From NCBI GenBank assembly GCA_027067785.1, contig JAMOVL010000065.1:16086-80085 (forward strand): a stretch of DNA of 64,000 nt, in the 5' to 3' direction. This DNA comes from Desulfurococcales archaeon. GTDB lineage: Archaea; Thermoproteota; Thermoprotei_A; Sulfolobales; Desulfurococcaceae. Below the pieces are notes generated by a model. The model saw nothing but the letters and a program-made list of their open reading frames with translations. It made no database searches and was not told the DNA's origin. This document shows, piece after piece, positions 37,227 to 40,952 of the stretch (positions are counted from its first letter, which is position 1; the number at the start of each line of letters is the position of its first letter). The position numbers and the translations under genes were made by a program.

Positions 37227-37249
37227 GGGGAGACCGGTCGGTAGTCGAG
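37227..37249 (+). other. leader of the tRNA-Lys 3' half: trans-pairing strand plus the intron side of the BHB
   Basis: GGGGAGACCGGUCGGUA (37227-37243) is complementary to 40936-40952: 17 bp, one G-U. GUCG (37244-37247) is the central BHB helix strand. AG (37248-37249) are the first two nt of the 3-nt bulge. Confidence 0.8.
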
Positions 37250-37292
37250 GCTCTTAACCCGTAGGTCCCGGGTTCAAATCCCGGCGGGCCCG
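37250..37292 (+). tRNA. tRNA-Lys(CUU) 3' half (positions 31-73) of a split, trans-spliced tRNA gene
   Basis: G-CUCUUAA-CCCGU-AGGUC-CCGGG-UUCAAAU-CCCGG-CGGGCCC-G reads as anticodon loop with CUU, 3' anticodon stem, variable loop, complete T arm, 3' acceptor strand and discriminator. There is no 5' acceptor strand or D arm upstream. CCA is not encoded. Confidence 0.85.
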
Positions 37293-37401
37293 CTCGCCCA
37301 TTCTATTTCTACTTCAACGATAAAAAGAAGATAAAGAAAGATTACACTAGGTACGCGATTACATCAATATTTAAAGTGTTCGATACAACGGTGCCTAACA
37401 A

Positions 37402-38322
37402 ATGATTAGTGATAAAATACTTTACAAACCCGTCGGCATACCGTTAAAGCATATTTATATAGTGCCTGGCGAGCCTGCACTCTATCTCGACGGGCTAGAC
37501 GCCATAGTCATCAATGATCTTCACCTGGGCTTCGAGGAAGCACTTGCAAGAGGACTAGATTACTCAGATAAATCAGCAAAGTATTTCCCTGGAATGATAG
37601 TGCCGAGGATCCAGTTGAAGAAGATCAAGGAAAGTCTGGCTAGGATTAATAGGATCATAAAGCCCCGGAGAATAATAATTAATGGAGATATCAAACACGC
37701 TTTTGATAGACTTCTACGTCAGGAACGAAAAGAAGTAAGGGATCTCATAGAGTACATCATATCCGATCTTAAAGTAAAGGAACTAATATTGATCAGAGGC
37801 AACCACGACAATTTCTTGAAGCTTCTCCTAAAGGATTATGGATTAGAGCTCATGAGAGACTTGGAGATAGAACTGGGCGGAGAAACTATCCTATTAACAC
37901 ATGGCCATATAGACGTAGATATATCTGGTTATGATGCTGTTATTATTGGGCATGAACACCCTAGTCTTAGGTGTTTCGGCACATATAAGTTCCCATCATT
38001 CCTTTTCATGCCTACGAGGCATGATAATCTCGTCATCGTCGTACCAGCAATGGGGCCTTACCAGGCCGGCACGACGATCACTCCTTCACCATCTGAGTAT
38101 CTATCACTAATCATTAGGAAATATTGCATTATAGAGCGTGGAAAACCTGTCATATGGGTATCAGATGATTCTGATCATTTCGCGAAAAGCGTTCTTGGCT
38201 CGCAAATAGTATCAATTGCTTCGGATCTTCTCGTTATGAAAGAATACAAGATTGAACAAAGAAACATATTCATTGTGGACTTCGCAGACATTACTACTGC
38301 GATGATCCTATGTGGTATTTGA
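37402..38322 (+). CDS. metallophosphoesterase (calcineurin-like)
   Basis: Motifs DLHLG, NGDIKH, RGNHDN, THGH and GHEH occur in canonical order. 306 aa. Confidence 0.8.
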   Translation: MISDKILYKPVGIPLKHIYIVPGEPALYLDGLDAIVINDLHLGFEEALARGLDYSDKSAKYFPGMIVPRIQLKKIKESLARINRIIKPRRIIINGDIKHAFDRLLRQERKEVRDLIEYIISDLKVKELILIRGNHDNFLKLLLKDYGLELMRDLEIELGGETILLTHGHIDVDISGYDAVIIGHEHPSLRCFGTYKFPSFLFMPTRHDNLVIVVPAMGPYQAGTTITPSPSEYLSLIIRKYCIIERGKPVIWVSDDSDHFAKSVLGSQIVSIASDLLVMKEYKIEQRNIFIVDFADITTAMILCGI

Positions 38323-38357
38323 TCATCTATCACTTCATTATCTTCGAAAAGAAACAG

Positions 38358-39377
38358 CTACTCATGTAATTTCTTTATAACACGGACAGTATCAAAACCA
38401 TGGCGAAGAACAACTATCACACGATCGAAGGCTAGTGGGGAGTCAGACATACATTCTATCAGGATCGAAGCTATTTTCTCTGCAATTCTTCGTATCTTCT
38501 CGTATTTCCTGATGAACCCTACACGGGTAACATTTGTTTCAAGAACATAAGCACTGCCGTTATAGGATAATGATGAATAAGACACTCCTATTCCTTCAAC
38601 TTCTGCTAGTTCGACTAGCCGATTACTCAGATCAAGTACTTTATCCGACAACCGTAACGCTAGATATACATTCATAGGCTTCTTCGTGCCAGTGATTTCT
38701 TTTTCTTCAGGTACTTCCTTCCTCGTATCCGAGGCGACAAATTTTGGTGGAACGAAGCCAGGAGGTAAAGGTCGTCGAGGTAATACTTTTGTCTTATCAA
38801 GCGATGTCTCAACAGGAATAGTTGACGCTATAGGTATATTTAGCTGCGTTGTCTCAGCGTAAGCATCAACTTTCGTAATAGTCTTTGTTTTCTTCTCAAC
38901 TTGTTGCTCTTTTAATTTTGACTCTGATGATCCACCGAAATCCTCTAGTTTTAGGTATTTCTTAACGAATTCGGATGGAAGTAGTGTTTCTTCAATAATT
39001 ATATGCGAATAGACATTGTTGTTAACATTATATGACAATTGCTCAAGAAGCTTTGAGCCATAGAGCCTCTGACCATTGATCTCGCCATGTGCACCTATGA
39101 CGACACCATTACATAGGAGAATAACCACTTCATCCCAACTACTTGTTCTACGCTTGAGGTTTATCCTGTTAAAAATACATGTGTTCTTAGATTTTTCAGC
39201 GAGCATTTTGAATACGTGAGGGATCTTATCGCCAATAACTCTTTCTATTCCTTGAAAAATACCTTCTAGAGTGATATGTGCTTCAAAAGAACTAGATGAA
39301 ATCTTCTTGCTTAACTCGTCCAGTTTTTCATGAACTCTTATCTCTACGAGTTCTTCGCCTGACAAAATCCACACCAT
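38358..39377 (-). CDS. hypothetical two-domain protein with a charged linker
   Basis: 339-aa ORF. The N- and C-terminal globular parts are joined by a K/E/T/P-rich segment (KLKEQQVEKKTKTITK...PPGFVPPKF...EEKEITGTKKP). No motif recognised. Confidence 0.55.
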   Translation of the reverse strand: MVWILSGEELVEIRVHEKLDELSKKISSSSFEAHITLEGIFQGIERVIGDKIPHVFKMLAEKSKNTCIFNRINLKRRTSSWDEVVILLCNGVVIGAHGEINGQRLYGSKLLEQLSYNVNNNVYSHIIIEETLLPSEFVKKYLKLEDFGGSSESKLKEQQVEKKTKTITKVDAYAETTQLNIPIASTIPVETSLDKTKVLPRRPLPPGFVPPKFVASDTRKEVPEEKEITGTKKPMNVYLALRLSDKVLDLSNRLVELAEVEGIGVSYSSLSYNGSAYVLETNVTRVGFIRKYEKIRRIAEKIASILIECMSDSPLAFDRVIVVLRHGFDTVRVIKKLHE

Positions 39378-39538
39378 AAATATTCAAATATATTTGTTCA
39401 ATGACGGTATTTATTTTCATTTATTATTAATACGTAGCGTTGCAATATAAAATGTGAAAAACATTTAAGATAATTAATACCGGATTAATACATATACTTT
39501 ATACCTTACTACTTCTTATCAATTCTAATACCTTGTAA

Positions 39539-39603
39539 GATCAGCCAATCGACCCCTCTTCATAGCGTAAAGATAACTCCGACTATGTCGGCCTCATCAT
39601 CCA
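39539..39603 (-). ncRNA. C/D box sRNA candidate 3
   Basis: Read on the minus strand: C AUGAUGA (39600-39594), a 12-nt spacer, D' CGGA (39581-39578), a 14-nt loop, C' AUGAAGA (39563-39557), a 12-nt spacer, D CUGA (39544-39541). It lies in an AT-rich 270-bp intergenic region. Confidence 0.55.
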
Positions 39604-39648
39604 ATCATCAAAATGGATTTACAAGCCTAATATTGTTTTGTCAAACTA

Positions 39649-40083
39649 TCAGGTTTCAACAAATACTTTGTTACCCCCTCTCCGCTTAATTGATCTTAGA
39701 ATTTTTAACGCCCTACTTCTACCAGGTGTTCCATAATACGCTTCTCTCCTATTTCTAGCAGGCTTACAGAGAACATAGTCTCTTAAAACTACTATCGTTA
39801 TTGATCCGCCGAGCTGATTTATCGCTCTACGTATTTGCTCCAGATCTCTCACTATACCATCTATTTCGCCAGGCATAGGTATCTCTATGATTACTTCTTC
39901 CGTCCCTCTTTCAAAGTCCAGGCCGTAAATCACTACTCCACGCCATTTTACGGCGAAATCGTAGAACATTTGTGTCAATGTACCGGTTATATCGTTTGGC
40001 TTATACTCGTCCAGACCACGTGCCTCAACATACTCTTCAAATTTGTCAAGATCGGCCACAATTATTAGTCCTTCTACTAGCAA
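39649..40083 (-). CDS. hypothetical protein
   Basis: 144-aa ORF with a TTG start. IVADLDKFEEY...YGLDFERGTEE is faintly reminiscent of nucleotide-cyclase/GGDEF-type folds, but this is not convincing. Confidence 0.45.
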   Translation of the reverse strand: MLVEGLIIVADLDKFEEYVEARGLDEYKPNDITGTLTQMFYDFAVKWRGVVIYGLDFERGTEEVIIEIPMPGEIDGIVRDLEQIRRAINQLGGSITIVVLRDYVLCKPARNRREAYYGTPGRSRALKILRSIKRRGGNKVFVET

Positions 40084-40103
40084 CGAGGGATCACCAGCAA
40101 TAC

Positions 40104-40170
40104 GAGTCAGTGTGAGACTAGGGTCTTCATCCCCTATAGAAGGGTCTCAGGCTGCCCACGTCATCATTCA
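40104..40170 (-). ncRNA. C/D box sRNA candidate 4 (weaker)
   Basis: Read on the minus strand: C AUGAUGA (40167-40161), a 10-nt spacer, D' CUGA (40150-40147), a 16-nt loop able to form CCC/GGG, C' AUGAAGA (40130-40124), a 13-nt spacer, D CUGA (40110-40107). The spacers are non-ideal and the terminal stem is poor. Confidence 0.35.
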
Positions 40171-40207
40171 AAGAAAAGATTTTGTGTAAAGAGGCTTATT
40201 AGCCTGG

Positions 40208-40792
40208 TTATCCTCTCCTGGGAAATAGGCATTTTAGCTCGAGGAGCTTCTGAGCGATTTTTCGTACTGCTTCTTCTACTTCTCTCTCCTCCTTAGCTCC
40301 CGTGATCACCATTTTCCCGCTACTGAAGATCAAGAGTACTACTCTAGGGCTCCTCATACGGTGTATTAGGCCGGGGAACTGTTCGGGCTCATACATACTG
40401 TCTTCCAATAGATACGCCGCTCTCTCAAGGTTAACCATTGCATTAATGTCTCCACTCGCAACTATGTTCTGTATCTGTATCCTAGGCTTCGAGGTTATCT
40501 TTATCCCGTGTTTACGTAGAAGCTTTATTATTCTCTTAACAGCTTCTATGAGCTCGCTAGTGCTCTTAGCTCCCGTGACGACCATTTTTCCGGATTTAAA
40601 TATAAGGGCTGTTGTCTTCGGTCTCTCTAGCCGGAGGATAAGGCCTGGAAATTGGTCTGGCTGATAAGTTACGTTAGGTACTCTGCTCTCTATGAGGTTA
40701 AGGTCTAGTGTCTGGTCGAGTATAACGGTTGCAACTATGTTCTCTATCTTAGTTGTAGGGTTGAGTGAGATCTCTCCTTCCAGTCCACTCAT
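40208..40792 (-). CDS. tbp: TATA-box binding protein
   Basis: Two direct TBP repeats (ENIVATV...[15 protein letters not shown] and QNIVASG...[15 protein letters not shown]). 194 aa. Confidence 0.95.
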
Positions 40793-40863
40793 TTTATAAA
40801 TCCCCCGATTTAAAAAACAACCTCATAGTTTATAAACACTCCCATAGAACACACGACGATAAG

Positions 40864-40870
40864 TTTATAA
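40864..40870 (+). promoter_or_regulatory. TATA box candidate for the tRNA-Lys 5'-half transcript
   Basis: TTTATAA ends 33 nt upstream of tRNA position 1. This implies a short 5' leader of about 8-10 nt to be removed by RNase P. The region also holds the divergent tbp promoter. Confidence 0.4.
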
Positions 40871-40903
40871 CCAGAATACCCCTTAAGTTAGGGTTGAACT
40901 TAT

Positions 40904-40934
40904 GGGCCCGTAGCTCAGCCTGGTAGAGCGGCGG
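40904..40934 (+). tRNA. tRNA-Lys(CUU) 5' half (positions 1-30) of a split, trans-spliced tRNA gene
   Basis: GGGCCCG-UA-GCUC-AGCCUGGUA-GAGC-G-GCGG reads as 5' acceptor strand, a perfect D arm with G18G19, and the first 4 nt of the anticodon stem. It is then followed by non-tRNA sequence. The acceptor strand is exactly complementary to 37285-37291. Confidence 0.85.
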
Positions 40935-40952
40935 ATACCGGCCGGTCTCCCC
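40935..40952 (+). other. trailer of the tRNA-Lys 5' half: trans-pairing strand
   Basis: A (third nt of the GGA bulge) followed by UACCGGCCGGUCUCCCC, which is complementary to 37227-37243. Confidence 0.8.

Follow-up and report, generated by a model that had tools for sequence, protein, structure and literature searches.

A probable split tRNA-Lys(CUU) gene, orthologous to that of Staphylothermus, in an uncultured archaeal lineage

Split tRNA genes are rare, and the debate over whether tRNAs arose from two half-molecules or were broken later centres on them. A split tRNA-Lys(CUU) gene was described in Staphylothermus marinus and Staphylothermus hellenicus by Chan, Cozen and Lowe in 2011, and the complete S. 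marinus genome lacks an intact tRNA-Lys(CUU) (PMC3218864). The experimental tests in that study were carried out in Aeropyrum only, so that the Staphylothermus case itself rests on sequence analysis, and the published covariation support consists of one base-pair-conserving change, G-U to G-C (PMC3218864). We investigated a 64-kb stretch of DNA (the window) in which two pieces, 3.6 kb apart, very probably encode the halves of one tRNA-Lys(CUU) that would be joined post-transcriptionally. The features of the locus are the following.

37187-37200, + strand: putative promoter of the 3' half, a purine-rich, BRE-like GAAAGA and then the TATA box TTTAATAA (37193-37200)
37227-37243, + strand: leader arm of the 3' half, GGGGAGACCGGUCGGUA, the h' element of an hBHBh' motif, pairing in trans with the 5'-half trailer
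37244-37249, + strand: GUCG and AG, the GUCG forming the 3' strand of the 4-bp central BHB helix according to an explicit pairing check
37250-37292, + strand: 3' exon, 43 nt, tRNA positions 31-73
40864-40870, + strand: TATA box of the 5' half, TTTATAA, 33 nt upstream of the mature 5' end
40904-40934, + strand: 5' exon, 31 nt, tRNA positions 1-30
40935-40952, + strand: trailer of the 5' half, A40935 and then the arm UACCGGCCGGUCUCCCC (40936-40952), the partner of 37227-37243

A first-pass annotation had placed the two halves at 40904-40934 and 37250-37292, and both were found there on the + strand. [quoted passage not shown] The two are exactly complementary parts of one tRNA, with zero overlap and zero gap. 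When joined (31 + 43 nt), they were recognized by ARAGORN as a 74-nt tRNA-Lys(ctt) with fully paired acceptor (7/7), D (4/4), anticodon (5/5, one G-U) and T (5/5) stems, as the annotation had proposed. Its claim that neither locus is a tRNA alone also held, as each half escaped detection singly: ARAGORN found no tRNA gene in the 64-kb window with or without intron mode, an Rfam scan of the window returned no tRNA at the gathering threshold, and the 3' half alone scored 19.6 bits against RF00005, for which the gathering score is 29. No intact tRNA-Lys(CUU) was found in the 64-kb window, which is the part of the genome covered by the search. The halves and their arms have a G+C content of 67-76%, versus 43% for the window.

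Pairing of the 5'-half trailer (40936-40952) with the 3'-half leader (37227-37243) was complete (17/17, one G-U), with a duplex energy of -36.6 kcal/mol. The outer limits given in the first-pass annotation, 37227 and 40952, are the exact outer ends of this 17-bp helix, although its text mentions neither this pairing nor the splicing motif described below. Among 5000 pairs of random 40-nt segments from the window, every run was shorter (maximum 16, mode 6-7). A canonical hBHBh' motif can be drawn at the 30/31 junction, with AGAG and CUCU forming h, CGGC and GUCG forming H, and bulges GG/A and AG/G (the slash marks the exon boundary). A40935 is the third nucleotide of the 5' bulge, GUCG pairs with C25, G26, G27 and C28, and the AG that follows provides the initial two nucleotides of the 3' bulge; cleavage is predicted directly 5' of 37250. 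The energy of this canonical conformer was -67.0 kcal/mol, versus a computed minimum of -79.3 kcal/mol for the two-RNA complex, and the minimum-energy complex showed a register-shifted pairing at the junction, not the canonical BHB.

Each half is preceded by a TATA-like box, as the annotation had also noted, and both boxes are putative promoter elements. The putative promoter of the 3' half begins just past the stop codon of the Radical SAM gene (37184-37186), and AAGATTTAATAATCC is conserved in the window, a metagenome-derived relative (L002) and S. marinus. In the window, L002, S. marinus, S. hellenicus, L141, L130 and L131, ~26 nt separate the end of this TATA box from the first G of the leader helix, a length that has been kept although the intervening sequence has diverged. 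The 5' half has an A/T-rich box 31-35 nt before G1 in the window, L002, L210, L212 and L214, the spacers having otherwise diverged.

The same split gene was detected in vent MAGs (L002-L006, L210, L212 and L214), and the trans-helix was aligned for eight sequences, from about six lineages, of the type shared by the window and Staphylothermus (type A). The arms aligned unambiguously and differed mostly in a compensatory manner: 6 of the 17 pairs were altered on both strands, with 98% of the cells of the eight-sequence alignment paired. When the partner strand was slid by one to three columns as a register control, 33-55% were paired and zero or one pair showed a double change. The two covarying strands come from sites separated by 3.6-4.8 kb. 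All eight sequences had the same bulges, GGA and AGG, and an H' of either GUCG or GCCG; the helix of L214 contained a 2-nt bulge and a C.A mismatch. The 3' exon was identical (43/43) in S. marinus, S. hellenicus, six MAG lineages and uninterrupted outgroup genes, and the 5' exon (31/31) in all type-A lineages and the outgroup genes. Since the 17-bp helix exceeds the random runs and both the halves and the helix are conserved in other lineages, with covariation, the feature at 37250-37292 and 40904-40934 is real and beyond chance.

Both published Staphylothermus loci were retrieved for comparison, and the joined exons of the window were identical to them at 74 of 74 positions. The 5' half sits between the DUF2070 and TBP genes, and the 3' half between the Radical SAM and Metallophos genes, in both Staphylothermus species as well as in the window and five MAG lineages, giving the order DUF2070 / 5' half / TBP ... 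Metallophos / 3' half / Radical SAM. The window and Staphylothermus also share the 31 + 43 nt exons, the 30/31 junction, the bulges, the placement of both halves on one strand with the 3' half upstream, and homologous arms starting UA.../...UA. They differ in the helix, which is a continuous 17 bp in the window versus 2 + 13 bp with an A.A mismatch in Staphylothermus, in H' (GUCG versus GCCG) and in the orientation of hyp144, which is opposite, and six helix positions differ compensatorily across the lineages. The halves are 3654 nt apart in the window versus ~4780 nt in Staphylothermus, because the gene for the M48 peptidase is absent here. In the window the spacer between the halves (3611 nt) contains four protein genes, of which three are encoded on the opposite strand. 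Protein identity to Staphylothermus was 85% for TBP, 65% for Radical SAM, 46% for Metallophos, 39% for DUF2070 and 36% for hyp339. Because the exons and the neighbourhood match, but the protein identities, the sequence and length of the helix and the spacing differ, the locus is the orthologue of the Staphylothermus split tRNA-Lys(CUU) in a different, uncultured lineage. The suggestion of the first-pass annotation that this is the Staphylothermus case or an orthologue of it is thus borne out, with identical exons and the same neighbourhood in a different genome.

Other split tRNAs are less similar. [quoted passage not shown] The mature N. equitans tRNA differs from that of Staphylothermus at seven positions (PMC3218864). 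The tRNA-Asp(GUC) of Aeropyrum pernix and Thermosphaera aggregans, which also belong to the Desulfurococcales and have one split tRNA per genome, resembles the present case in its close halves, hBHBh' motif and G/C-rich stem, but it is another tRNA, with a canonical 37/38 junction and directly adjacent halves.

The anatomy, the conservation, the covariation of the trans-helix and the orthology with the published case were established by our analysis, and we consider it highly probable (roughly 0.88) that the locus is a split, trans-spliced tRNA-Lys(CUU) gene, orthologous to that of S. marinus and S. hellenicus, that arose from a contiguous ancestor by displacement of its 5' part. The steps from transcription of both pieces to cleavage, ligation and the processing of the ends are modelled on known archaeal split tRNAs. 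Each half would be driven by its own TATA-box promoter, yielding a 3'-half transcript with a leader of ~23 nt and a 5'-half transcript with a trailer of ~18 nt, and leader and trailer would anneal through the 17-bp G/C-rich helix. The tRNA splicing endonuclease would then cleave both 3-nt bulges, after G30 and before G31, so that the leader arm (37227-37243) and the trailer (40935-40952) are presumably removed by splicing; a broad-specificity (alpha-beta)2 enzyme is expected for Thermoproteota from the literature. The exons would be joined by an RNA ligase, and the ends would be finished by RNase P, tRNase Z and the CCA-adding enzyme, giving the 74-nt tRNA plus CCA.

It is very unlikely that the pieces are instead non-functional remnants of a broken tRNA in a cell served by an intact tRNA-Lys(CUU) or by tRNA-Lys(UUU) alone. 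The portion of the genome examined is 64 kb and tRNA fragments are common in Desulfurococcales genomes (Chan et al., PMC3218864), but each piece shows 100% identity between lineages that share 36-65% identity in the neighbouring proteins, the non-coding arms covary with their pairing kept, the spacing of the promoter boxes is maintained, and the complete S. marinus genome is without an intact copy (PMC3218864). Conservation of the BHB motif is likewise not expected of remnants.

An equally improbable reading is that of a permuted tRNA gene, in which one long transcript, covering the 3' half, the intervening 3.6 kb and the 5' half in that order, would be circularized by BHB splicing and the tRNA then released by RNase P and tRNase Z. 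The two halves do share a strand, with the 3' half upstream (37250-37292 before 40904-40934, +), the BHB is formed by the outermost flanks as in the permuted-gene model (PMC3978253), and trace read-through was reported for the adjacent Aeropyrum halves (Chan et al., PMC3218864). However, known permuted genes (Cyanidioschyzon merolae; Thermofilum pendens) are expressed as one transcript and have spacers of 1-85 nt, whereas the 3.6 kb separating the present halves are occupied by four protein genes, three of them antisense, and each half has a putative promoter, that of the 5' half being a TATA box at a tRNA-typical distance that is conserved across lineages. In L216/L217, more than 10 kb separates the two halves.

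Archaeal tRNA genes are well-documented targets of integration, and an attachment-site duplication consists of the same tRNA segment repeated beside an intact gene. That the fragments are such duplicates, left by an integrated virus or plasmid targeting tRNA-Lys, is the least credible reading, although integration was proposed as a source of split genes by Chan et al. (PMC3218864) and Sugahara et al., since the pieces are complementary (31 + 43 nt) and not repeated, the four genes between them, which are also conserved as chromosomal neighbours in outgroups, yielded no integrase or transposase domain, and the 3' exon was not found in viral contigs.

The favoured split, trans-spliced gene also has contiguous counterparts. 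Outgroup metagenome contigs were found to contain a contiguous tRNA-Lys(CUU) gene whose exons are identical; it is uninterrupted in some and has a cis-intron at 30/31, with the same BHB, in others. This gene lies directly upstream of Metallophos, which is the site of the 3' half in the window (L092, L075 and L073 among the cis-spliced genes). The introns, which are of the non-canonical kind, end in ...GCCGAG/G or ...GCUGAR/G. The cis-spliced form is a single gene with a single promoter, and the arms of its 15-42-nt intron form a hairpin, whereas the arms of the window are encoded as separate pieces. The retention of a contiguous gene at the 3'-half site in the outgroups argues that, for this tRNA, the split is derived rather than ancestral. 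The ancestor would have been a contiguous tRNA-Lys(CUU) gene directly upstream of Metallophos, where the 3' half still resides, and its 5' part would have been displaced to the spacer between TBP and DUF2070.

No new mechanism comes with this locus, but a case previously described in two isolates is extended by it to an uncultured clade of hydrothermal-vent archaea. New with respect to the 2011 description are the strong covariation of the intermolecular helix, with six pairs altered on both strands, and the outgroups with a contiguous gene at the 3'-half site. The region between the halves has been changeable, with one gene lost or gained, one inverted and one replaced, and since it is not frozen, the published proposal that the split stabilizes the local genome appears weakened. 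We tentatively suggest, as a possibility we hold to be somewhat improbable, that the Staphylothermus-type split is in effect a permuted tRNA gene stretched over 3.6-4.8 kb, which may have arisen from a contiguous 30/31-intron gene via tandem duplication of a [tRNA ... TBP] block and reciprocal loss, the two promoters being then acquired or kept, and that splitting at the 30/31 intron may have occurred at least twice in the clade, once in type A (the window and Staphylothermus) and once in type B (L086/L151, with arms like the intron hairpin of L075/L092). If so, the split and permuted classes, hitherto treated as mechanistically separate, would be linked, and with repeated splitting the clade would offer a natural series at one syntenic locus, from uninterrupted through cis-intron to split genes.

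The two half-genes of the window lie on the same strand, and each exon is accompanied by an arm complementary to the arm of the other half:

37227-37243, + strand: leader arm of the 3' half, 17 nt, GGGGAGACCGGUCGGUA
37250-37292, + strand: 3' exon, GCTCTTAACCCGTAGGTCCCGGGTTCAAATCCCGGCGGGCCCG
40904-40934, + strand: 5' exon, GGGCCCGTAGCTCAGCCTGGTAGAGCGGCGG
40936-40952, + strand: trailer arm of the 5' half, 17 nt directly 3' of the 5' exon, UACCGGCCGGUCUCCCC

Joining the 5' exon to the 3' exon (junction ...GAGCGGCGG/GCUCUUAACC...) produced a 74-nt sequence, which ARAGORN called as tRNA-Lys(ctt) with all stems fully paired and one wobble, G27-U43, bearing out the cloverleaf proposed in the first-pass annotation. 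Its statement that neither locus is a tRNA by itself also stood: ARAGORN found no tRNA gene in the unjoined 64-kb window with intron mode on or off, and Rfam found no tRNA there at the gathering threshold. At a relaxed threshold, the 3' half alone gave a forced, sub-threshold tRNA match (19.6 bits against 29); the S. marinus 3' half was likewise first met as a low-scoring, mis-typed tRNA (Chan et al., PMC3218864). ARAGORN and Rfam cannot detect the split tRNA-Lys(CUU) gene. The exons and flanking arms have a G+C content of 67-76%, and the window 43%.

The trailer and leader arms, whose pairing was absent from the first-pass description, formed 17 uninterrupted pairs including one G-U, with a duplex energy of -36.6 kcal/mol. 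Beside this helix a canonical hBHBh' motif could be drawn:

tRNA positions 21-24 (AGAG) with C32-U35: outer helix
C25 G26 G27 C28 with leader GUCG (37244-37247): central 4-bp helix
5' strand GG/A and 3' strand AG/G: bulges

The predicted cleavage points fall after G30 and before G31. The computed minimum of the two-RNA complex, at -79.3 kcal/mol, is a conformer other than this canonical one (-67.0 kcal/mol).

The TATA-like box ascribed earlier to each half was identified upstream of both, with its spacing apparently kept across lineages. The box of the 3' half, AAGATTTAATAATCC, was kept from the window through S. marinus, and in seven lineages ~26 nt separated the end of the TATA box from the first G of the leader helix, the intervening sequence having diverged. 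This fixed distance would be consistent with a transcription start at the helix and with a 3'-half precursor of ~66 nt, close to the published length of ~65 (PMC3218864). G1 of the 5' half is preceded, at a distance of 31-35 nt, by an A/T-rich box in the window as in the MAG lineages, which would leave the precursor with a short leader for removal by RNase P. A second TATA-like box, TTTATAAA, identical on both strands, was observed at 40829-40836, 37-44 nt upstream of the start codon of the TBP gene (40792, - strand), suggesting that the 111-nt spacer between TBP and the 5' half probably houses divergent promoters for the two genes.

The first-pass annotation had left open whether this was the Staphylothermus case or an orthologue. 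In Staphylothermus, the two halves, 31 and 43 nt when mature, share a strand; the 3' half lies upstream, ~4.8 kb separates them, and they are joined at positions 30/31 through an hBHBh' motif and a 13-nt trans-pairing (PMC3218864). We located the S. marinus and S. hellenicus genomes through TBP homologues and compared the loci CP000575.1:1270014-1290604 and CP002051.1:1084315-1104905, respectively. Both contained the published halves, and the published helix was reproduced (13 bp, with a G-U in S. marinus replaced by G-C in S. hellenicus). The exons of the window were identical to those of both species at 74/74 positions, and the gene order was shared: DUF2070, 5' half, TBP, intervening genes, Metallophos, 3' half, Radical SAM, h187 and an ABC transporter. 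Protein identities between the window and S. marinus were 85% for TBP, 65% for Radical SAM, 61% for hyp144, 46% for Metallophos, 39% for DUF2070 and 36% for hyp339, indicating that the window organism differs from the published Staphylothermus species. Five genes lie between the halves in Staphylothermus but four in the window, which lacks the M48 peptidase gene, and hyp144 has the opposite orientation; the halves are therefore 3654 nt apart in the window and ~4780 nt apart in Staphylothermus. With identical exons, a shared neighbourhood and a different organism, the locus is an orthologue. These results show a real feature and support its reading as a split tRNA-Lys(CUU) of the Staphylothermus type, carried by a lineage that is new and uncultured. 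In reviews published through 2015, this split gene is listed for the two Staphylothermus species only, and we found no later report beyond Staphylothermus in full-text literature of incomplete coverage.

The split form shared by the window and Staphylothermus (type A) recurred at the same two chromosomal sites in further metagenomic loci:

L002-L006: vent MAGs GCA_015523235.1, GCA_015521315.1 and others
L210: vent MAG GCA_054027595.1, with a protein named 'Staphylothermus sp.' in its TBP cluster
L212: vent MAG GCA_053993435.1, with an SSO2105_N-domain gene in place of the middle gene (hyp339)
L214: vent MAG GCA_054038495.1

In addition, the 5' half adjoined DUF2070/TBP in L029, L216 and L217, the latter two without a 3' half within 10 kb of it, and type-A 3' halves were present in L141 and L130. 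The bare 3' half of L131/L132 is probably a diverged type A. The distribution indicates that the split gene is clade-wide. We compared the block between the halves (37293-40903) with L127, L210, L212 and L216. The M48 peptidase gene of Staphylothermus recurred in L216, and hyp144 was inverted in both Staphylothermus and L210. The complete synteny of S. marinus and S. hellenicus was taken by Chan et al. as a hint of enhanced stability (PMC3218864); across the wider lineages, in contrast, the block between the halves is unstable.

The same block contains an unannotated candidate C/D-box sRNA, in the 271-nt hyp144/hyp339 spacer:

39541-39603, - strand: AUGAUGA, 12 nt, CGGA, spacer, UAUGAAGA, 12 nt, CUGA

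Rfam gave it only sub-threshold matches (sR5 at 17.6 bits, sR14 and sR1). The candidate was kept in L002/L003 (78%, 108 nt) and found also in L214 and L092, and its D guide and D box had an exact match in L212.

The adjacency of tRNA-Lys(CUU) and a co-oriented Metallophos gene immediately downstream is widespread; besides the type-A split, it occurred in three states:

L133-L138, L140, L142, L154: uninterrupted gene with identical exons
L092, L075 (Desulfurococcaceae MAGs; 35-nt intron, 9-10-bp hairpin) and L073/L082 (Pyrodictiaceae): intron at 30/31 with the same BHB
L151: bare 3' half of a second form (type B)

The Pyrodictiaceae genes at this site (L073:3297-3412 and L082:296-409, both - strand) appear to contain another intron just past the anticodon loop in addition to the one at 30/31. 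In two metagenome lineages (L143:9832-9905 and L144:9839-9912), the gene directly upstream of Metallophos was tRNA-Lys(UUU) instead of tRNA-Lys(CUU), only 1-2 nt different from the window exons.

In the outgroups L135, L137 and L138, tRNA, Metallophos and M48 point one way and are followed by h144, TBP, DUF2070, ATPb1 and Lig pointing the other way. The type-A order begins with the 3' half and Metallophos and continues to h144, TBP, 5' half, DUF2070, ATPb1 and Lig, the 5' half being oriented like the 3' half and opposite to its neighbours. By this comparison the 3' half still occupies the ancestral position, and the 5' part was relocated across a collinear block with its orientation kept. Multi-step paths to this arrangement are possible, since the outgroups have a different left flank as well (Radical SAM in type A). 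A tandem duplication of the block with subsequent reciprocal loss, as has been proposed for permuted tRNA genes (PMC3978253), would give the permuted order and may explain it. The model predicts homologous promoters of the two halves, but these showed no consistent homology: a short resemblance in the window (TTTATAACCAGAA vs TTTAATAATCCAGAA) was missing from L212, S. marinus and others. Insertion into the intron was rejected, as it would place the 5' half before the 3' half and cannot give the observed order. No integrase was found between the halves, and no viral contigs carrying the 3' exon were found.

Type B comprises a stand-alone 5' half beside hyp339 (L086:4119-4149) and a stand-alone 3' half beside Metallophos-TBP-hyp144 (L151:857-899). 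Although they derive from different samples, the L086 trailer and L151 leader formed 17 consecutive pairs, and both arms resemble the cis-intron hairpin of L075/L092; H' is GCUG, vs GYCG. Both contigs end near the halves, and their flanks share no overlapping sequence. The pair is a candidate second type of split tRNA-Lys(CUU).

A scan of the genome collection with an over-degenerate 5'-half pattern returned at least 119 loci, including many bacterial genes for tRNA-Lys, Met or Ala; the matches listed did not extend to S. marinus or S. hellenicus, and served as a survey of cis-introns and stand-alone halves. Among the matches listed, the 30/31 cis-intron in tRNA-Lys(CUU) was very widespread, with many cases in Thermoproteota as well as Bathyarchaeia (Bathyarchaeia, Sulfolobales, Desulfurococcales, Pyrobaculum and Methanomethylicota; L017, L023, L028, L034, L037, L043, L047, L053, L065, L068, L075, L088, L092, L107 and others), the introns being 15-35 nt long and ending in ...GNYGAR/G; 30/31 introns also occurred in tRNA-Trp(CCA) and tRNA-Arg(UCG) of the same 5'-exon family. 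Two Desulfurococcales MAGs contained stand-alone 5' halves (L044:2900-2930 and L098:6750-6780, both - strand) followed by G/C-rich trailers. Their exon (D-loop GCCAGGCA) is the 5' exon of the intron-bearing tRNA-Trp(CCA) in L022/L122, and they may be split tRNA-Trp genes; no Trp 3' half lay within the 8-kb loci.

We aligned the junctions of eight sequences: the window, two L002-type variants, S. marinus, S. hellenicus, L210, L212 and L214. Standard pairs occupied 98.0% of the hBHBh' cells vs 93.3 +/- 0.9% in shuffles, and none of 500 shuffles reached as high. Double-sided changes affected six pairs (14 cells), all within the 17-bp trans-helix; a partner shift of 1-3 columns left only 33-55% of the cells paired and 0-1 pairs double-changed. 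The bulges were invariant, and the central helix varied only from G-C to G-U. Chance as the origin of the halves and helix was rejected by this covariation together with a control of 5000 random pairs of 40-nt window segments, in which the longest run was 16 (usually 6-7) against the 17 observed. Since the two helix strands covary although they come from unrelated intergenic spacers lying kilobases from each other, the alignment provides strong evidence that selection acts on the intermolecular helix.
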